Assembly (NCBI GenBank): GCA_023485685.1
Contig: JAMCZK010000013.1
Location: 442 to 64,441 of the forward strand
Reading direction: 5' to 3'
From: Chloroflexota bacterium
GTDB lineage: Bacteria > Chloroflexota > Anaerolineae > Anaerolineales > UBA11579
DNA: 64,000 nt
The notes under the pieces were generated by a model. That model did no database searches and had not been told where the DNA came from. It saw only the letters and a program-made list of their open reading frames with translations. Within the stretch, counting starts at the first letter, position 1, and every line of letters starts with the position of its first letter. Shown here in pieces: positions 8,217 to 37,118 of the stretch. Position numbers and translations under genes: made by a program.

Positions 8217-9200
8217 ATGCAGACTAACTTACGCGGTCGCGATTTCATTAGCGACCTGGACTTTAGCAAGGAAGAAATCGAAACCGTTTTAGATGTAGCC
8301 TGGGACTTGAAGCGCAAGCGCGCCCTTGGGGAGCCGCACGCTCTTTTACGAGACAAGGTGCTGGCCATGCTCTTTTTCTTTTCGAGCACGCGCACTCGCG
8401 GCTCTTTCGAAGCGGGTATGGCTCAATTGGGCGGGCACGCCGCCTTCATTGAATCTCGCACCACCCAGATTTCACATGGGGATACGGAAAAGGAAATGGG
8501 CCATATCTTCGGCCGATATTTCGATGGCATCGCCATCCGCCACGTGGAGTGGGGTGTGGGCAACCGCTACCTCAATCTGGTGGCAGAAGCCTCCGGGGTG
8601 CCGGTGCTCAACATGCAGTGCGAGATCTACCACCCCCACCAATGCCTGGCCGATCTCATGACCATGATGGAGAAGTTCAGCACTCGCAGCTTGCGCGGCA
8701 AGCGCGTAGTGGTTTCCTGGGCTTACGCCTCCAGCTACCTCAAACCTATTTCAGTTCCCCAATCGCTGATTTTGCAGCTGCCTCGCTTCGGCGCAGACGT
8801 TGTACTTTCCCACCCCAAGGGCTTTGAGTTGATGCCAGAGATCATGGATCAAGCCAAGTCGCTTTCCAAGCGATACAAGACTGGCTTTGATGTGGTCCAC
8901 GACATGAAGGAAGGCTTCGAGGACGCCGACGTGGTGTACGCGAAATCCTGGGGACCGCTACTGACGACTTCGGATGTCGCCAAAGGCAAAGAGTTGCAGG
9001 ACGCCAACAAAGATTGGATCACCGATGCCAAGAAGATGGCCGTTGCACACGACGATGCCATCTACATGCATCCACTTCCCGCGGACCGTGACGTGGAAAT
9101 CACCAGCGAAGTCCTGGACGGTCCACAATCGGTTGTGATCGACGAAGCTGAAAACCGCCTGCACGCGCAAAAGGCCGTGATGGCGTTAACGATGTGCTGA
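8217..9200 (+). CDS. Ornithine/aspartate transcarbamylase-fold enzyme (YgeW/OTCase-like), substrate uncertain
   Basis: Motifs STRTR and HPHQCLADL, MHPLPADRD (HPLP rather than the OTCase HCLP), and KSWG where OTCases have SMG. ATG 8217 follows AGGAGA; the track start at 8199 is less likely. Confidence 0.8.
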   Translation: MQTNLRGRDFISDLDFSKEEIETVLDVAWDLKRKRALGEPHALLRDKVLAMLFFFSSTRTRGSFEAGMAQLGGHAAFIESRTTQISHGDTEKEMGHIFGRYFDGIAIRHVEWGVGNRYLNLVAEASGVPVLNMQCEIYHPHQCLADLMTMMEKFSTRSLRGKRVVVSWAYASSYLKPISVPQSLILQLPRFGADVVLSHPKGFELMPEIMDQAKSLSKRYKTGFDVVHDMKEGFEDADVVYAKSWGPLLTTSDVAKGKELQDANKDWITDAKKMAVAHDDAIYMHPLPADRDVEITSEVLDGPQSVVIDEAENRLHAQKAVMALTMC

Positions 9201-30362: not shown

Positions 30363-31574
30363 ATGTTTTTTCGCCGAATGGCTTTATTTTCAGTAGGTGC
30401 TGTTTTGCTGGCCTTCCTTGTTTACCAAATCCCCTGGGTCCGCCTCCGCGTGGACTGGCGGCTGCAGGTTGCGCAAACCTATATCACCAGCCGCCTGAAC
30501 CCCGCCGGCGCGCTACCTCCGCCGCAGATTGAGAGTTCAGAGATACCTTTTGCGACCGCAAACAGCCCCACTTCGCAACCCCCGACGGCAATTCCGCAGG
30601 CCACCCCGACGCCGCTGCCGTTGTCAGTGCAGTTAACGCCGGCGGAATACGAGTTACAGGGTCCTAACAATTGCGGCCCTGCCACGTTAGCGATGTACCT
30701 GCGTTATTACGGTTGGGATGGCGACCAATATGATATTTCGGACGAGATCAAGCCGGTAACTAGGGACCGCAACGTCAATGTGGACGAGCTCATTTATTAC
30801 ACGAGTAATTGGGCGGGATGGCTGAAATCCACTTTTCGTGTCGGCGGTGACATCGATCTGCTCAAACAATTCCTGGCCGCCGGCATCCCGGTAATGGTGG
30901 AGAAGGGGTATGTCATCGAGATCGATTATTTCTATCAGGATGATTATTGGAACGGGCACTACGCGCTGGTCACCGGATACGATGACGCCGCACAAACCTT
31001 TACGTATCAGGACAGCTACAAAGGCCCCGATGAGCAAATAGATTACGCGGAATTTGATGAATTCTGGCAGCAATTCAACCGCGTATTCATCCTTCTTTAC
31101 CTGCCGGAGCAGGAACAGACAGTTATCAATCTGCTCGGCGCTGACTGGGATGAAGAAGTCAACCGCCAAAATGCTTTGGCTATTGCCCAGGCGGAAACGA
31201 TTTCGGATCCTGACAATGCTTTCCCCTGGTTCAATCTTGGTATGAACCAGGTCTATTTCGAAGATTACGCCGCTGCGGCTGCTTCATTTGACCGCGCCCG
31301 CGAGATCGGCTTGCCGATGCGCATGTTGCGCTACCAGTTCGGTCCTTTTTTCGCGTATTACAATGTCGGGCGTATGGACGATTTGAACGAATTGTTGGAT
31401 TACGCCCTACAGATCACACCCGAATCCGAAGAGGCGTTCATTTGGAAGGGCTGGATGTTGTATCGACAAGGGGACAATAACCGGGCTATCTCGCAGTTTC
31501 TCTTGGCCCAGGAAGCCAATCCCAAATCTGTTTACGTGGCGCAAGCGCTGAGTTTTATGGGCGTGACGCCCTGA
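30363..31574 (+). CDS. Membrane-anchored C39-like cysteine peptidase domain protein with C-terminal TPR repeats
   Basis: N-terminal TM segment and a Pro-rich linker. GPNNCGPATLAMYLRYYGW supplies the catalytic Cys context and NGHYALVTGYDD a His context. TPR-like repeats fill the C-terminus. Confidence 0.65.
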   Translation: MFFRRMALFSVGAVLLAFLVYQIPWVRLRVDWRLQVAQTYITSRLNPAGALPPPQIESSEIPFATANSPTSQPPTAIPQATPTPLPLSVQLTPAEYELQGPNNCGPATLAMYLRYYGWDGDQYDISDEIKPVTRDRNVNVDELIYYTSNWAGWLKSTFRVGGDIDLLKQFLAAGIPVMVEKGYVIEIDYFYQDDYWNGHYALVTGYDDAAQTFTYQDSYKGPDEQIDYAEFDEFWQQFNRVFILLYLPEQEQTVINLLGADWDEEVNRQNALAIAQAETISDPDNAFPWFNLGMNQVYFEDYAAAAASFDRAREIGLPMRMLRYQFGPFFAYYNVGRMDDLNELLDYALQITPESEEAFIWKGWMLYRQGDNNRAISQFLLAQEANPKSVYVAQALSFMGVTP

Positions 31575-31592
31575 TCTATCACACGAGGAAAA

Positions 31593-32030
31593 ATGAAAAA
31601 ATCCGGAGAGCTGATTTGCGCGTTAGCGATCACCGCGATGCTGGCTGCCTGTGGTCCTGCAACGGCCACACCGGAACCTTTTATCGAGCCTGACTACCTG
31701 ATCGAGCAATTAATCCCCCCACTGGAGGCGCCGGAGGGTGCGCAGCAGCTCGGGGGCGGGGGCGGAGGCGGACCCAACGGGATGGGCGTTGGCGCCTTTT
31801 TCATTAGTGACCTGACTATCGGCGAAGTTCATCAGCATTATTACGAACAGCTGGAAGAGGCTGGTTGGCGTTTCATCTCCGAGCAAGATTCGGAAAACGA
31901 AATGATCACATTTTGGGAATTGTCCGATAAGGATGGCGCTGCCTGGTCTGGGAAATTGGAGGTTGTCTTCAGCCCTCCAGATTTCCCCGACACCTATAAA
32001 GTGGATGTCATGATCCTGCTCCCTCGATAA
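31593..32030 (+). CDS. Small lipoprotein, unknown function
   Basis: Signal peptide with lipobox (AMLAAC) and a glycine run. Confidence 0.6.
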   Translation: MKKSGELICALAITAMLAACGPATATPEPFIEPDYLIEQLIPPLEAPEGAQQLGGGGGGGPNGMGVGAFFISDLTIGEVHQHYYEQLEEAGWRFISEQDSENEMITFWELSDKDGAAWSGKLEVVFSPPDFPDTYKVDVMILLPR

Positions 32031-32061: not shown

Positions 32062-32211
32062 GTGATCCGCAAATTGAAATCCGGCAAGTATCGTCTCTAT
32101 TCGAAGAAGAAAGATCCCAAAACCGGCAAACGACGCAATCTTGGCACTTTCAATACACGTGCAGCTGCCGAAAAGCACGAACGCGAGGTCCAGTATTTCA
32201 AACGACAATAA
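32062..32211 (+). CDS. 49-aa basic small protein (below the ORF-track cutoff)
   Basis: GTG start. Translation VIRKLKSGKYRLYSKKKDPKTGKRRNLGTFNTRAAAEKHEREVQYFKRQ looks protein-like and is followed directly by a strong terminator. The family assignment is from memory only. Confidence 0.45.
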   Translation: MIRKLKSGKYRLYSKKKDPKTGKRRNLGTFNTRAAAEKHEREVQYFKRQ

Positions 32212-32226
32212 TGCGGCAAACGAAAA

Positions 32227-32248
32227 GGGCAGGCTCCAAAACCTGCCC
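32227..32248. terminator. Bidirectional rho-independent terminator between convergent genes
   Basis: gggcagg-ctccaaaa-cctgccc, flanked by an A-run upstream and a T-run downstream. Confidence 0.65.
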
Positions 32249-32277: not shown

Positions 32278-33822
32278 TTACTGTTCCATTGTCCCAACCC
32301 AGTTCTGTCCAGCGATTTCCAATCTCACCTGATCTTCCTCGAAGCGCATCCATAAAAACATCAGATCCAAACCGGGGCCTTCGTTGTATTCGATGATGAA
32401 GGTTTGTTCATCCACCCACTCGGCGCGGGCTTTGACAATCCTACCGTTCACGCTGTCGCGGTACAACCCATCCAACCCGGCCATATCCAGGCGCGGCTCT
32501 GGCTCGTAGGCTACTTTGAGTTCGAATTGCATTTGATTTGGCTCATCAAAAGTTAGTGCGATGTACTCCAGTAAGGTGTTTGGCTCTCCTACAAACCTCT
32601 TCCCGGAAATCTCGCGTGCGATGTCTGGCAGAGGTGGCACGGGTTCTGTCTCAGGAGCCTGCGCAACCCCGGCTATCGCTTCCTGCAGCAGTGCCTGGCC
32701 TTCAACATTCTCTGGCAGCGCCGGGGCTCCACTCTCTACGTCGCCGACGGACGCTTCGATGAACTGGTCGACCTGACTGGGGTCAAAACCGGCCCCGGTT
32801 TTCACGATGACTACGTCAAATGCAGGCACGACTTGGATCTCTTGACCGCCGCGACCAGAGGCCATGTAAGCAAAGATTTCGTCCAGGTTAACCCACCAGC
32901 CGTATCCGTAGGCCTCGCCATTGTCGGCTACCAGCCGCGGCTTGACCGCGTTTTCCACCCATTTGCGAGAAATTATTTGCTGCCCCTCCCACATTCCATT
33001 GTTCAGCCACAGGTAACCTACCTTGGCCATGTCGCGCGGATACATGGCGAGGTCTCCCCAGCCGTGATTGAACCCTGTGGCATCTGCAGGCCAGTAGACT
33101 TCCTCGATACCAAGTGGATCGAACAGGTTCTCCTGGGCAAACTCTAGAGTGCTCATTCCCGTCGCCTGGGTCAGGATGGCAGACAACATGTGCGAGCCTG
33201 GGCTGCAGTAGTCCCAAACAGTACCAGGTTGGTGAATAGGCTTGAGATCGAGGGTGAACTGCACCCAATCATCACTGGCTTTCATCTGTTGTAATGTAGG
33301 CTCTCCCTCGGATGTCCGATAGCAATCCAACCCCGAACTCATGGTGACGAGATGGCGAACGGTGATCTGTTTCTTCCATTCATCGAGGTTGGCAATGGTC
33401 CGTTCGGGGAAAAAGGAAATCATCGGCGCATCCAGGTCCAGCAAGCCCTTGTCAGCTGCGATACCGATCAATGTAGTTGTGATGCTCTTGGTCACCGAAG
33501 CCACATCATGCAGAGTGGTTCCGTCGTAGGGATAGAAATAGGCATCGAGAAATATTGTTCCATGGCGGACGATCGTGAGGCTGTGGATGGCGGTGCCATT
33601 CGTCTTCATCGTGTTGATGGCAATCGCCAATTTCGCGGAGTCGAATCCCCGGGATTCCGGGGAAGCTGTTTCCCAGCCATTCGTCGGCCAGTAATCGCGG
33701 GTCGGCGCGCTGGCGCGCGGCCAAAAGGTAAAGACGCCCGCGGCGACTAACGAAACGCTGAGAACGGCGAAGATAATTCGAGCCGGACTAAGCCAACTCT
33801 TGCTGCTTAGTGTGTTGCTCAT
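32278..33822 (-). CDS. Membrane-anchored beta-lactamase-fold serine hydrolase (class C / PBP4*-like), paralog A
   Basis: S-x-x-K motif in ASVTKSITT, an N-terminal TM anchor and a ~150-aa C-terminal extra domain. ATG 33822 follows GGAGG. Confidence 0.85.
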   Translation of the reverse strand: MSNTLSSKSWLSPARIIFAVLSVSLVAAGVFTFWPRASAPTRDYWPTNGWETASPESRGFDSAKLAIAINTMKTNGTAIHSLTIVRHGTIFLDAYFYPYDGTTLHDVASVTKSITTTLIGIAADKGLLDLDAPMISFFPERTIANLDEWKKQITVRHLVTMSSGLDCYRTSEGEPTLQQMKASDDWVQFTLDLKPIHQPGTVWDYCSPGSHMLSAILTQATGMSTLEFAQENLFDPLGIEEVYWPADATGFNHGWGDLAMYPRDMAKVGYLWLNNGMWEGQQIISRKWVENAVKPRLVADNGEAYGYGWWVNLDEIFAYMASGRGGQEIQVVPAFDVVIVKTGAGFDPSQVDQFIEASVGDVESGAPALPENVEGQALLQEAIAGVAQAPETEPVPPLPDIAREISGKRFVGEPNTLLEYIALTFDEPNQMQFELKVAYEPEPRLDMAGLDGLYRDSVNGRIVKARAEWVDEQTFIIEYNEGPGLDLMFLWMRFEEDQVRLEIAGQNWVGTMEQ

Positions 33823-33879
33823 GAGGTCCTCCAAACCTTTTCCAGGTCAAATTGAGTTGCCCCTAAGATAGCCAGTATC

Positions 33880-33909
33880 GGTTAGGCTTGTCGCCTAGAA
33901 AAAGTTAGG
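33880..33909 (-). promoter_or_regulatory. Conserved 30-nt upstream box, copy A
   Basis: ggttaggcttgtcgcctagaaaaagttagg matches 35610-35639 at 29 of 30 positions. It lies 57 nt upstream of the start and contains TAGGC-N5-GCCTA. Confidence 0.4.
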
Positions 33910-33925
33910 TTTTAGGTCTGGATAG

Positions 33926-33956
33926 AAAAAGCGCAGGTACATACCTGCGCTTTTTT
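33926..33956. terminator. Bidirectional rho-independent terminator between the two serine-hydrolase paralogs
   Basis: aaaaa-gcgcagg-tacata-cctgcgc-tttttt. Confidence 0.7.
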
Positions 33957-33985
33957 CCTTTCTCCTATTCTTCAGGCTGTTTTTA

Positions 33986-35554
33986 TCAGGGCTCCATGGT
34001 CCCCACGAAAGTCCCCACGTCGGTGATTTTCATCTCCAGTTGATTGCCTTCGAATTTCATCCAGAAGAACAATAGGTTTAGCCCAGGGCCTTCGTTGTAC
34101 TCGATGACAAAGGTTTTTTCATCCACCCATTCGCCGCGGGCAAGGACAGGTTTACCAGAAACGCTTGCTCGGTAAAGGCCATCCAGTCCGACAAGACTCA
34201 CACGCGGTTCAGATTCATTTTGAACTGTAAATTCAAGCCTCGCTTCCCCTGTTTCAGGGAAGGTGAGCGTCAAAGCCGAATTCAAGATGCCGTTGCTCTC
34301 CAAGATGAAGTTCTTGCCTGAAATTTCTTGGACAATCGCCGGCAAGGATGGCACCGGTTCGGCTTCGGGCGCATCCAGGATCGCCACCAGTGCTTCCTGC
34401 AACTGTGCTTGTCCTTCGGGATTCTCCGGCATTCCATTCTCCAGGTCGCCCACTGCAGATCCAAGGTAATTGTCGATCTGTCCCGGGTCGTAGCCTCCGC
34501 CGGTCTTTACAATCACAACATTAAATTCGGGTATTACCTGTATCTCCTGCCCGCCTCGCCCGGAGGCCATATAAGAGAATGGTTCATCATCATTCAGCCA
34601 AATTCCGTAGCCGTAGTCTTGTCCGCGGTCGGTCCCGATTTGTGGGGTGATCGCATTTTCAACCCATTCTCGCGAAACGATCTGTTGGCCATCCCAAGCG
34701 CCTAAATTCAGCCACAGGTACCCGATTTTGGCAGCATCTTGAGGGTACATTGCCAGGTCTCCCCACCCATAGTTGATCCCATTGGAGTCGGCAGGCCAAA
34801 AGACTTCTTCGATGCCCAAGGGCCCAAACAGATGCTTCTGGGCAAAGGCAAGCTCGCTCATTCCCGTTGCCTGCGTAAGGATGGCGGACAACATGTAGGA
34901 ACCTGGGCTGCAGTAGGCGAAGACAGTTCCAGGCTCATGAATTGCCTCGAGGTCGAGGACAAACTGTATCCAGTCATCGCTGGCTCGCATTTCAGCCTGC
35001 GTCCGCTCCTCACCGCCTTTGTCGTCGCAGTGGAGACCAGAGCTCATCGTCATAAGATCGCGTACAGTGATCTGCTCCTTCCATTCGTTGCGATTGGCGA
35101 TCGTTCGCTCGGGGAAGAATGAAACCATGCTGTCGTCCAGGTTCAAGTATCCTTTGTCGATGGCAATGCCGATAAGAGTTGTTGTGACGCTCTTGGTTGC
35201 GGATGCCATGTCATGCAGCGTGGTGCCATCGTATGGATAAAAATAAGCATCCAATACGATCTGGCCATTTCGCATGACCAACCAACTGTGCATCGGGGTT
35301 TCATTGCGCTTTACGGTGTCAAGCACTGTCGCCAACTTGGCCGAATCCAGTCCCAGCGACTCTGGTGAGGCGAATTGCCATCCCTCCGTCGGCCAGTAGT
35401 CTGCGGCTGGCACGTTCGCCTGCGGAAGGGCGACAGACGCGGTTGCCCGCGGCCAAAAATAAAACGCGGCTGCCCCGGCCAGTGAAACCCCCAATACGAT
35501 AATGATGATTCGGATCGGATTAAGCCAACCCTTGCTGCTGATAATGTTGCTCAT
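33986..35554 (-). CDS. Membrane-anchored beta-lactamase-fold serine hydrolase, paralog B
   Basis: 522 aa, collinear and highly similar to 32278-33822. S-x-x-K in ASATKSVTT. ATG follows AGGAGG. Confidence 0.85.
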   Translation of the reverse strand: MSNIISSKGWLNPIRIIIIVLGVSLAGAAAFYFWPRATASVALPQANVPAADYWPTEGWQFASPESLGLDSAKLATVLDTVKRNETPMHSWLVMRNGQIVLDAYFYPYDGTTLHDMASATKSVTTTLIGIAIDKGYLNLDDSMVSFFPERTIANRNEWKEQITVRDLMTMSSGLHCDDKGGEERTQAEMRASDDWIQFVLDLEAIHEPGTVFAYCSPGSYMLSAILTQATGMSELAFAQKHLFGPLGIEEVFWPADSNGINYGWGDLAMYPQDAAKIGYLWLNLGAWDGQQIVSREWVENAITPQIGTDRGQDYGYGIWLNDDEPFSYMASGRGGQEIQVIPEFNVVIVKTGGGYDPGQIDNYLGSAVGDLENGMPENPEGQAQLQEALVAILDAPEAEPVPSLPAIVQEISGKNFILESNGILNSALTLTFPETGEARLEFTVQNESEPRVSLVGLDGLYRASVSGKPVLARGEWVDEKTFVIEYNEGPGLNLLFFWMKFEGNQLEMKITDVGTFVGTMEP

Positions 35555-35609
35555 GTGTTCCTCCTAACTTTTTTCAGGTAGTCGATTTGAATCCACCATA
35601 GCGGGTAAG

Positions 35610-35639
35610 GGTTAGGGTTGTCGCCTAGAAAAAGTTAGG
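35610..35639 (-). promoter_or_regulatory. Conserved 30-nt upstream box, copy B
   Basis: ggttagggttgtcgcctagaaaaagttagg, 55 nt upstream of the start of paralog B. Confidence 0.4.
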
Positions 35640-35660
35640 GTCTGGTCAAAGACCAGACCC
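35638..35660 (-). terminator. Hairpin terminator candidate after the LuxR-type gene
   Basis: gggtctggtc-aaa-gaccagaccc is a 10-bp perfect stem. On the minus strand, T-rich sequence follows after 4 nt. Confidence 0.5.
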
Positions 35661-35710
35661 TTATTGCGAGCAATCCTCTAAGTAGCTAAAAACTCAATTG
35701 GCGAGGTTGA

Positions 35711-37030
35711 TTAGAGAGGGGTTTGATTTTTGGAAAGAAGGCGAAACTCTCTGGCGCGTACCAGCGCTTGGGTTCGGCTGTTGACCCCCAGCTTGGTATA
35801 GATGTTATTGGTGTGCCACTTTACAGTACCAACCGTCAGGTAAAGTTGATCGGCAATTTCCCTGTTGGAAAGACCCGCGTCAATGAAGCCCAAGACGTCC
35901 TTCTCGCGTTCACTGAGGGGATCGGCCAGGGGGGCAGGTGTCTTCGTTGTTGTTTGGGTGATTCCCAGGTAGGGCTGAATGCCAAAGAACCGACGATCCA
36001 CAAAATGTTGCAATTGTTGACGCGCGGGCTGAAACAAAATGGCGATGATCACGGCGGATGCGGTGAGCATGACCGAGGTGAACTGGTTGCCGAACAGGGC
36101 GATCGATAGATTTTGAAGCAGCAGTGCGGAGCCAAAGAATACGAGACCAAGCAGTAAGGTGAGGAAACTATATACGATGCCGCGATTGATATAGAAGTCG
36201 ATATCCCAAAGGTGGTATCGCAGGATGGAAATGGTGATGACCGTCGGGAGGATCAGCAGAACGACGATCTGTACAAAAGTGCGGAACACTTCGTAGATAA
36301 AGATCACGGAACTTGCCGGTGCAAAGTAATTGAGTGCTGCGAAATGGATGAGGTTCAAGCCATAAGCGATCAGGATAATGACGGCAGTTCCAAACACTAC
36401 CCATTTGATCTGTTGCTGTTGTTCCGCCGACGTAGTTCGGTATCGGTAGATGAGTGCAAGCAGGCCGCTGCCCAGAAAGACCAGGTCGAGGATATCTTCG
36501 GTGGCGTCTCCTGGGAGGAGGTCGAGTTGGACGATCCCTAGATAGATCAGCCATGGCGCTAACAGCCAGCCAATCCACTTCGGCACCACGCGCCCATCCG
36601 GAAAAGAAAACATGAATAACAATGACAAGAAATCCGCCATCATCTCGTAAACACGGAGGGATGGAGGCAATGGTTCGGGTAAATAATTGATCACCCCGTT
36701 GGTCACCCCGATAACAATTAAAGCAGCGGAAAAAAACAACGCCGGTCGGTTATCCCCGCGCCGCCAAAAGATCAACGCAGCCGCGGCAAGAAATCCCGCG
36801 ATGAGCAAGACACGCAAAAAGAGCGCGGTGAAGGACAGGGCTTCAATTACGATGGGCGATAAGTTGAGCAGGGTAAGCTCTTCTGGGGCGGAAGCCAAGA
36901 AAATCGCTTTGTACGACGCTGCGGGGGTCCCAAGAACAATGATCCCCAGGCTCAGAAACAATAGTCCCCACCAAGCGATTCGCGCCCATTTGTTTCCAAA
37001 TGGCAAGGCAACTCCTTTGCGGGAAAGCAA
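35711..37030 (-). CDS. Polytopic membrane protein fused to a C-terminal LuxR/FixJ-type HTH (membrane-bound one-component regulator)
   Basis: About 350 aa with 8-10 hydrophobic spans, then LSEREKDVLGFIDAGLSNREIADQLYLTVGTVKWHTNNIYTKLGV (the GerE/LuxR_C signature). No receiver or kinase domain is present. Confidence 0.75.
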   Translation of the reverse strand: MLSRKGVALPFGNKWARIAWWGLLFLSLGIIVLGTPAASYKAIFLASAPEELTLLNLSPIVIEALSFTALFLRVLLIAGFLAAAALIFWRRGDNRPALFFSAALIVIGVTNGVINYLPEPLPPSLRVYEMMADFLSLLFMFSFPDGRVVPKWIGWLLAPWLIYLGIVQLDLLPGDATEDILDLVFLGSGLLALIYRYRTTSAEQQQQIKWVVFGTAVIILIAYGLNLIHFAALNYFAPASSVIFIYEVFRTFVQIVVLLILPTVITISILRYHLWDIDFYINRGIVYSFLTLLLGLVFFGSALLLQNLSIALFGNQFTSVMLTASAVIIAILFQPARQQLQHFVDRRFFGIQPYLGITQTTTKTPAPLADPLSEREKDVLGFIDAGLSNREIADQLYLTVGTVKWHTNNIYTKLGVNSRTQALVRAREFRLLSKNQTPL

Positions 37031-37118
37031 GAAACAGGCGGGAAGCTTGCATTATATGCCGAAGCTAGCTCTTCTCTTAACTATTTGTTAGAACTTAAAG
37101 CTTATTCGTGCCGGTTTC

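Follow-up and report, generated by a model that had tools for sequence, protein, structure and literature searches.

A putative membrane-tethered LuxR-type regulator and its proposed, conserved operator in front of two exported PBP-fold hydrolases in an Anaerolineales bacterium

A window of 64,000 nt from an uncultured Anaerolineales bacterium (Chloroflexota), the whole stretch of DNA analysed here, contains a region at positions 32278-37030 whose minus strand carries three collinear genes encoding a regulator and two hydrolases, A and B. The regulator is a membrane-embedded one-component LuxR-type transcription regulator. We favour, with moderate confidence, a reading in which this membrane-tethered protein acts, probably as an activator, at a conserved operator-promoter preceding the genes of two exported hydrolases of penicillin-binding protein (PBP) fold. 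The reading draws on gene anatomy, domain relationships, the specificity and conservation of a 30-nt box upstream of each hydrolase gene, and the co-variation of regulator and hydrolase among related genomes. Comparative evidence of this kind supports the proposal that the box ties the regulator to the hydrolase genes.

The membrane-embedded regulator

The regulator gene and its parts are placed as follows.

35711..37006, minus strand: regulator gene, 431 residues from a TTG at 37006, with AAAGGAG 5 nt upstream
35711-37030, minus strand: maximal open reading frame of the regulator, 439 residues from a TTG at 37030
35984..37006, minus strand: transmembrane (TM) input domain of ten helices, unnamed family, residues 1-341 (AlphaFold2 model and alignment)
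35756..35923, minus strand: GerE/LuxR domain for DNA binding, of helix-turn-helix (HTH) type (PF00196, E 3.5e-17; Foldseek matches)

A sequence-only reading of this DNA had described a regulator of 439 residues with a polytopic membrane region fused to a GerE/LuxR HTH and with neither receiver nor kinase. The architecture was borne out, with ten modelled membrane helices and GerE as the sole recognised domain. The 439-residue frame is present, but translation probably begins at the TTG at 37006, because AAAGGAG lies 5 nt upstream of it and both the database cluster of the same protein (431 residues) and the N-termini of orthologs (MPRISNW..., aligning with MPFGNKW... of the window) agree with it. 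GerE occupies residues 370-425 of the 439-residue frame and scores 62 bits against a cut-off of 23.5, and the NCBIfam matches are limited to the HTH of NarL-, FimZ-, CsgD- and MalT-type proteins. Searches of Pfam and NCBIfam detected no receiver, no kinase (HisKA_3 with HATPase_c) and no other domain besides the HTH, and neither Peptidase_M56 nor a penicillin-binding sensor domain matched at E <= 0.1. Together with the lack of a BlaI repressor or LysR regulator, this upholds the sequence-only statement that the system is not of the BlaR/MecR or AmpR type.

The AlphaFold2 model of the regulator, built with 52 homologs, reached a predicted local distance difference test score (pLDDT) of 86.8 and a predicted template modelling score of 0.72. 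It places ten membrane helices between residues 3 and 341, in agreement with a hydropathy scan, followed by a low-confidence linker at 342-365 (pLDDT <50 at 349-353) and a four-helix GerE domain. Comparison of the full model with the PDB by Foldseek gave 447 matches, none of which reached E <= 0.001, and the 50 best of them aligned with the HTH only, the nearest being the DNA-binding domains of LiaR, VraR, ChrA and GerE at 45-48% identity; none of these 50 matched the TM fold. The domain search of the TM region that the sequence-only reading had proposed thus yielded no Pfam or NCBIfam counterpart and, among the PDB matches listed, the HTH alone. The one Pfam/NCBIfam match of the TM region, Cyt_bd_oxida_II, is spurious (20 bits against a cut-off of 35.6), and a known sensor family was rejected for this region.

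Four motifs of the TM domain are conserved family-wide in the alignment: FPDGR, YRYR...QQQIKW, LRYxLWDID..INR and FQPxRxxLQ..DRRF. In the window regulator they read FPDGR, YRYR..QQQIKW, LRYHLWDIDFYINR and FQPARQQLQ..DRRFF. With ten passes and a basic N-terminus inside, the HTH is predicted to sit in the cytoplasm. The model and the positive-inside rule likewise put all the conserved motifs on the cytoplasmic face, and the outer loops in the modelled topology are short.

A conserved box in front of both hydrolase genes

Each hydrolase gene is preceded by a copy of the box.

35611..35640, minus strand: box A, CCCTAACTTTTTCTAGGCGACAACCCTAAC, with half-sites CCTA / TAGG / CCTA
35619-35624 and 35595-35600, minus strand: -35-like GCGACA and -10-like TATGGT of the box A promoter, with an 18-nt spacer
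33881..33910, minus strand: box B, ACCTAACTTTTTCTAGGCGACAAGCCTAAC; an extra CCTAAA lies immediately upstream of it, and a -10-like TATCTT at 33865-33870

The two boxes are identical at 28 of 30 positions and start 86 nt (A) and 88 nt (B) before the start codons. When a position weight matrix built from seven sites was run over the whole 1.71-Mb assembly, they scored 46.6 and 45.1 bits and the next best site 14.8 bits, so that a count of two boxes in the genome is far beyond chance. The almost identical upstream boxes noticed in the sequence-only reading are therefore real and are the only two such sites in the genome. In the relative G401/G406, the box pattern (<=3 mismatches) gave two matches against none in a reversed control. 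One G401 site lies beside the regulator, and the other lies in trans on a different contig, before a LiaF-TM-like protein. This trans site (L049 6263-6733, G401 contig 11) precedes a membrane protein of 140 residues with a weak LiaF-TM match (E 3.8e-5), of which no homolog was found in the window genome.

The comparison covered contigs with eleven orthologous regulators and one hydrolase ortholog. The box lies 3' of the regulator gene in 11 of the 13 independent ortholog loci with sequence available, and directly downstream of it in L001, L003, L055, L057, L006, L007, L009, L051 and L053. In the closest clade (L057, L001, L003 and L055; 65-74% identity) the order is regulator, box and then a beta-lactamase-fold gene. 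The more basal branches (53-59% identity) keep the box after the regulator and have a different next gene: an Acyl_transf_3 (AT3) membrane acyltransferase in L051 and L053, a small lipoprotein followed by AT3 in L009, a bactofilin/toastrack-SHOCT protein followed by AT3 in L007, and a lipoprotein in L006. Sequence flanking the box is unalignable between the hydrolase-linked and the basal groups, and wherever the box is kept, so is the recognition helix VKWHTNNIYTKL.

The invariant or near-invariant positions read CCT.(A).C.TT...TAGG.GAC...CCTA.C, followed by the spacer and a -10-like TAT(G/C/T)GT. Three CCTA/TAGG half-sites stand 11-12 bp apart, the central and downstream ones bracketing a -35-like (G/T)(C/T/G)GACA that lies 18 nt from the -10. 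The box looks like an operator that overlaps a weak -35 element, with a geometry resembling that of lux-box promoters. No box occurs upstream of the regulator gene in any locus, and autoregulation was rejected. For the 5' leaders, which are similar, Rfam gave no match at E <= 0.1, and a riboswitch or a known RNA element was likewise rejected. Scans for the exact box pattern in public genome and metagenome collections returned one extra site each; most of the ortholog contigs are evidently not included in these collections.

Co-occurrence of regulator and hydrolase

Among the 23 species genomes of the genus, the intact regulator occurs in the window genome (G000) and G406 only, and the two-domain hydrolase occurs in the same two. 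A third genome, G408, whose hrcA is 89% identical to that of the window, carries a deletion scar adjoining hrcA (L092 3078-3901, G408:C85), in which frameshifted regulator residues 4-199 are joined to residues 449-521 of hydrolase A, the remainder of both genes and the box being gone. Since the scar joins remnants of both genes, the cassette is read as ancestral at the hrcA site and as being lost as a unit in a small-genome lineage. The co-variation is consistent with functional coupling of the two genes, in genomes that are close kin and not independent samples.

In the regulator tree, all hydrolase-linked regulators fall into a single clade (support 100/99) that excludes the AT3-linked ones, so the pairing with a beta-lactamase-fold gene arose once. 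The co-occurrence survey suggested by the sequence-only reading consequently gave a divided answer: regulator and hydrolase co-vary in the genus and in this clade, but the pairing is confined to the clade, and regulators elsewhere would drive Acyl_transf_3 genes. A PF00144 gene of a different subfamily (L054 747-1994, 415 residues) lies directly upstream of a 53%-identical regulator ortholog, with no box visible. It was rejected as a second independent pairing, given its 27% identity to hydrolase A over 153 residues and the missing box.

Several observations weigh against the favoured reading. The pairing amounts to one clade and one evolutionary event, and synteny among close relatives is weak evidence alone. 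In L057, the closest relative, the box stands before the A-type gene A' only and the B-type gene B' follows a terminator without one, so a B gene can exist boxless. The orthologs L010 and L054 show no box in the sequence available, and the metagenome contig L050 combines boxes and a nearby MalT-type LuxR while lacking a TM-LuxR gene over 10 kb. Finally, the position of the box alone cannot separate activation from repression.

On L050, one box (1033-1062) with a good -10 (TAAAAT) lies upstream of an FAD amine-oxidase-like gene, a MalT-type LuxR regulator of 906 residues follows two genes past the latter, and a weaker second box (8222-8251) lies 7 kb downstream. Because these boxes lie near a MalT-type LuxR without a TM-LuxR, related GerE domains may share this operator. 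The same contig, along with the boxless regulators of L010 and L054 and the hrcA...C39 neighbourhood that is syntenic in close relatives, would also suit an explanation in which the box is bound by a different factor or marks a lineage-specific promoter type, its adjacency to the TM-LuxR gene being inherited synteny and the regulator having other targets or none. That explanation is very unlikely in our judgement: 11 of 13 loci show the box after the regulator despite non-homologous downstream genes and unalignable flanks, G000 and G401 hold two sites per genome, and VKWHTNNIYTKL is conserved together with the box.

Two old hydrolase paralogs

The two hydrolase genes are laid out as follows.

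33986..35554, minus strand: hydrolase A, 522 residues, A-clade paralog, motif ASATKS; TM anchor at residues 13-33, PBP/beta-lactamase-fold domain at 55-366, lipocalin-like beta domain at 415-521
32278..33822, minus strand: hydrolase B, 514 residues from an ATG at 33822 behind GGAGG (518 residues if read from an upstream TTG), B-clade paralog, motif ASVTKS

Hydrolases A and B are collinear and share 63% identity from end to end, and each begins with a single N-terminal hydrophobic helix. The two collinear serine hydrolases of about 520 residues described in the sequence-only reading, with an SxxK motif, an N-terminal anchor and a C-terminal domain (about 110 residues), were recovered in this form. 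In the maximum-likelihood tree, an A clade (window A, A' of L057, L001 and others) is sister to a B clade (window B, B' of L057 and three others), and each spans several genomes; L001 and L003 have an A-type hydrolase only. A and B are, by this tree, old sister paralogs. Because the paralogs are old and their boxes are nevertheless identical at 28 of 30 positions, the near-identical boxes and leaders, set against 63% protein identity, indicate probable selection or gene conversion acting on the regulatory region. A recent tandem duplication was rejected as the cause of the identical boxes on account of the multi-genome A and B clades and of L057, which has two paralogs and one box.

Both proteins match PF00144 (A 118.6 and B 138.7 bits against a cut-off of 27; E 4e-34 and 3e-40). 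S118, K121 and Y214 are invariant across 52 hydrolase homologs; both proteins have SxxK, with Y-C-S as second motif and R-G-G instead of KTG as third. With the class C beta-lactamase model NF033085 they scored 28 and 36.8 bits (cut-off 415) and with the AmpH model 24-26 bits (cut-off 266), and the PBP4B model rejects both proteins as well. The best NCBIfam match, 3-succinylated cholic acid synthase (NF045925), reached 176.7 and 155.2 bits against a cut-off of 800 and spans model positions 27-314 of 498, that is, the catalytic domain only. The closest solved structure is Lsa45 (PDB 8dc1; sequence E 6.6e-39), with NylB, PIB-1 and EstG next.

The AlphaFold2 model of hydrolase A (pLDDT 88.5) shows an all-beta C-terminal domain at 415-521. 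Foldseek aligned the whole length with Pab87 (2qmi, E 1e-16), SurE (6ksv, 7e-15) and IS11 (7spn, 5e-14) over about 505-520 columns, with a root-mean-square deviation of 15-17 A that reflects a different domain orientation. On the basis of the model, the C-terminal domain is assigned to the lipocalin-like domain of the Pab87/SurE/IS11 two-domain class. More than 1,150 family matches at 46-50% identity come from Anaerolineae and Actinomycetota, and nearly all lack this regulator.

Proteins of about 908 residues (P0172, P0225 and P0226) join Acyl_transf_3 (PF01757), an 11th TM helix, a PBP-fold domain and a lipocalin-like domain, and their hydrolase module is 50% identical to the hydrolase A ectodomain, C-terminal domain included. 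An SGNH domain holds the same place behind AT3 in OatA/OafA, and the AT3-hydrolase fusion goes unmentioned in a 2022 review of AT3 proteins (PMC9558356). The fusion confirms the extracytoplasmic location of the hydrolase and hints at acyl-group chemistry on envelope glycans. Fusion AT3 and box-linked AT3 genes share 25% identity only. A search for PF01757 genes came up empty in both G000 (76% complete) and G406 (92% complete); a role of the hydrolase as partner of an AT3 acyltransferase in this genus was therefore rejected, and here the hydrolases would act on their own. Their probable activity is that of an esterase, peptidase or acyl-transferase, directed at a substrate in the envelope or outside the cell.

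The sequence-only reading had connected the locus with the sensing of beta-lactams or peptidoglycan fragments. Such a circuit would induce two beta-lactam-hydrolysing or penicillin-binding enzymes, and it could appeal to the PF00144 fold with its invariant SxxK serine and lysine and second-motif tyrosine, to a catalytic domain facing outward toward peptidoglycan, and to an HTH that resembles those of LiaR and VraR, which respond to cell-wall antibiotics. It is nonetheless highly improbable: the AmpC- and AmpH-type scores fall far below their cut-offs, the third motif is R-G-G, and the best relatives are Lsa45, NylB, Pab87 and the 3-succinylated cholic acid synthase family. Moreover, a BlaR-type protease, a PBP sensor domain and a LysR regulator are all absent, and the same regulator and box would control Acyl_transf_3 genes in other clades. 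The wider idea of a cell-envelope circuit fared better, as the box-linked genes in relatives mostly encode exported or membrane proteins and an envelope theme fits these gene types; beta-lactam specificity is the part left without support.

A large family of putative membrane input domains

The TM domain of the regulator is covered by no Pfam or NCBIfam model. At 30-40% identity its relatives are found as stand-alone proteins or fused to GAF-HisKA_3-HATPase_c, PDZ or Ser/Thr kinase domains. A profile search of 1.84 billion representative proteins, clustered at 50% identity, returned 41,390 clusters at E <= 1e-3, of which 13,200 reach E <= 1e-30. Most members are stand-alone proteins of about 420-460 residues whose C-terminal end resembles the first helix and strand of GAF, and some proteins hold two or three tandem copies of the domain (900-1450 residues). 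In larger Anaerolineae genomes, stand-alone genes of about 430-450 residues also stand in tandem, with up to about ten copies per array (G437:C1:3817378-3835852; also G380:C29, G235:C106 and G082:C118). Fusion to GerE is rare: about 20 clusters (at 90% identity) were found to have it, each from metagenome contigs of Anaerolineales type, and no case turned up among 400 sampled genomes of the class.

HisKA_3 kinases pair with NarL-family regulators, and in 4 to 5 of 14 loci of kinases bearing this TM domain a GerE-HTH gene, 45-49% identical to the regulator HTH, lies immediately downstream. The regulator therefore reads as a two-component pathway that may have collapsed into one polypeptide.

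Terminators, promoter and neighbouring genes

The remaining features of the locus are listed below.

37051..37080, minus strand: candidate sigma-70-like promoter of the regulator gene, TTAAGA-18-TATAAT
35637..35661, minus strand: terminator hairpin after the regulator gene (-20.5 kcal/mol, z -6.25)
33925..33956, minus strand: terminator hairpin after hydrolase A (-22.3 kcal/mol, z -6.5)
32227..32248, minus strand: terminator hairpin after hydrolase B (-19.9 kcal/mol, z -3.3)

T-runs follow the hairpin of all three genes, and the sequence-only claim that each hydrolase gene has its own terminator holds. The hairpin that follows the regulator gene reaches with its 3' arm and T-run into the start of box A. 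A convergent small basic open reading frame (32062-32211, plus strand) uses the same bidirectional terminator as hydrolase B. Farther on, at 30363-32030 (plus strand), the window encodes a Peptidase_C39_2 and TPR protein of 403 residues and a lipoprotein-like protein of 145 residues. Both genes are also kept beside the cassette in L001, L003 and L057, and they were not found within 10 kb of the G408 scar.

Proposed mechanism

Based on these comparisons, we infer that the HTH binds the box and regulates positively, and we extend the proposal to the nature of the signal and the enzyme substrate. The ten-helix membrane domain would serve as the signal-input module that elsewhere feeds GAF-HisKA_3 kinases, and a 25-residue linker would couple it to the NarL/LiaR-like HTH, replacing a two-component system by a single polypeptide. 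Given conserved motifs predicted on the cytoplasmic side and short outer loops, the domain probably detects its signal inside the membrane or at the inner face. The membrane-tethered protein, probably as a dimer or higher oligomer, would then bind an operator of about 30 bp, CCTA-N8-TAGG-N7-CCTA, which overlaps the -35 of the weak promoter GCGACA-N18-TATGGT, with activation of transcription as the most likely outcome. The regulon in this genome would consist of the two adjacent, separately terminated genes for outward-facing, membrane-anchored hydrolases.

The mechanics could differ, with a repressor occluding the -35 element until a signal arrives or an HTH released by proteolysis through the 342-365 linker. 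An operator overlapping the -35 is compatible with repression, and the linker is the sole low-confidence segment of the model; even so, we regard these mechanics as quite unlikely, given a weak promoter (-35 matching at 4/6 positions, 18-nt spacer), characterised TM-LuxR proteins that activate from the membrane (PMC9734109), and a neighbourhood without any conserved gene for a site-2-protease or the like.

A further alternative concerns the signal. In a substrate-induced circuit of the DadR type, the TM domain would bind an exogenous ester, amide or peptide substrate and induce the hydrolases for catabolism or detoxification, not for envelope monitoring. This is the experimentally shown logic of 10-12-TM LuxR regulators that sit beside an induced enzyme gene (PMC9734109); esterases, nylon-oligomer hydrolases and acyltransferases are all known from the hydrolase fold family, and the cassette is accessory and patchy in the genus, as catabolic modules often are. 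On the other side, orthologs (53-59% identity) with the same box and recognition helix would drive Acyl_transf_3, bactofilin-like and lipoprotein genes, and since different targets stand under the same box, a hydrolase-substrate signal is unlikely to be ancestral. The topology, with conserved residues predicted on the cytoplasmic face and short outer loops, also speaks against an exogenous ligand. We consider this alternative rather unlikely and retain the membrane-tethered, probably activating regulator of exported hydrolases as the preferred reading.

Beyond the locus, a more tentative proposal, which we hold to be possible and clearly short of an even chance, is that the ten-helix domain defines an unnamed, very large family of membrane signal-input modules with GerE HTH, HisKA_3, Ser/Thr kinase or no visible output. 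It may sense an inner-leaflet or lipid-linked envelope intermediate, and the shift of targets from AT3 to hydrolase, together with the AT3-hydrolase fusions, might point to an undescribed envelope acylation/deacylation pathway of Chloroflexota. Were this so, the HTH fusion, the readable operator and the two target promoters would offer the simplest experimental handle on the family signal, the regulator and a 90-nt promoter forming a compact reporter for what tens of thousands of uncharacterised membrane proteins detect.

Comparison with known systems

To our knowledge, membrane-embedded LuxR regulators have so far been studied in gut Coriobacteriia only. Dong et al. (2022) gave genetic evidence that DadR, HcdR and CadR of Eggerthella lenta activate adjacent enzyme genes, and the '10-12-TM LuxR' family to which they belong is defined by architecture, its TM domains being <20% identical within the family (PMC9734109). 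The regulator shows that architecture, with ten TM helices, a C-terminal GerE HTH and no other signalling domain, kinase and receiver included; like the DadR group, its gene lies beside an enzyme gene, and it is proposed from its sequence to act from the membrane. Unlike the DadR group, it comes from Chloroflexota and is present in one copy per genome, compared with dozens in Eggerthella. Its TM domain belongs to a family common to HisKA_3 kinases and stand-alone proteins, its proposed targets are exported PBP-fold hydrolases or AT3 acyltransferases instead of Mo/flavin reductases, and a conserved operator can be read. The TM-domain searches matched no named Coriobacteriia protein, most matches being nameless and a direct comparison with DadR not having been made. 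The architecture is therefore not unprecedented; what is new is the phylum, the input module shared with HisKA_3 kinases, the exported targets and the readable operator, the same one-component design being built here from a different, widespread and unannotated input module.

Transmembrane transcription regulators occur widely (Demey et al. 2023; PMC10269533), and the regulator, which unites a DNA-binding domain and TM helices in one polypeptide without a phosphorelay, falls within their definition (at least one TM helix). It shares one-component, membrane-anchored DNA binding with ToxR, TcpP and CadC (PMC10269533). The classic members are single-pass proteins with an N-terminal OmpR-type winged HTH and a periplasmic sensor, whereas the regulator has ten passes, a C-terminal GerE and scant periplasmic mass.

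The likeness to LiaFSR and VraSR lies in the HTH, close to those of LiaR and VraR, in a TM module otherwise carried by HisKA_3 kinases and, for LiaFSR, in box-linked genes of relatives that include LiaF-TM-like and toastrack/bactofilin-like proteins. In contrast to these systems, the regulator has no kinase, receiver or phosphorelay, and the intramembrane-sensing LiaS has two TM helices, not ten. The case illustrates how a two-component pathway could be condensed into a single membrane protein.

As for the hydrolases, the catalytic domain is 27% identical to that of Lsa45 of Leptospira interrogans, which its depositors call a penicillin-binding protein that has esterase activity (PDB 8dc1), with a TM-score of 0.87 on the target and with the SxxK serine and lysine and the tyrosine kept. 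The order of a PBP-fold domain and a lipocalin-like beta-barrel domain is that of Pab87 (2qmi), SurE (6ksu) and IS11 (7spn); unlike the Lsa45/Pab87 class, hydrolases A and B carry an N-terminal membrane anchor and the Y-C-S and R-G-G motifs. With BlaR1/BlaI, MecR1/MecI and AmpR/AmpC the locus shares a regulator gene that adjoins a beta-lactamase-fold gene, but it differs from them in having no M56 protease, PBP sensor, BlaI repressor or LysR regulator, and its enzymes are not class A or C by curated models. A likely annotation error is averted in this way, as the two 'beta-lactamase' genes provide no evidence for resistance to antibiotics.

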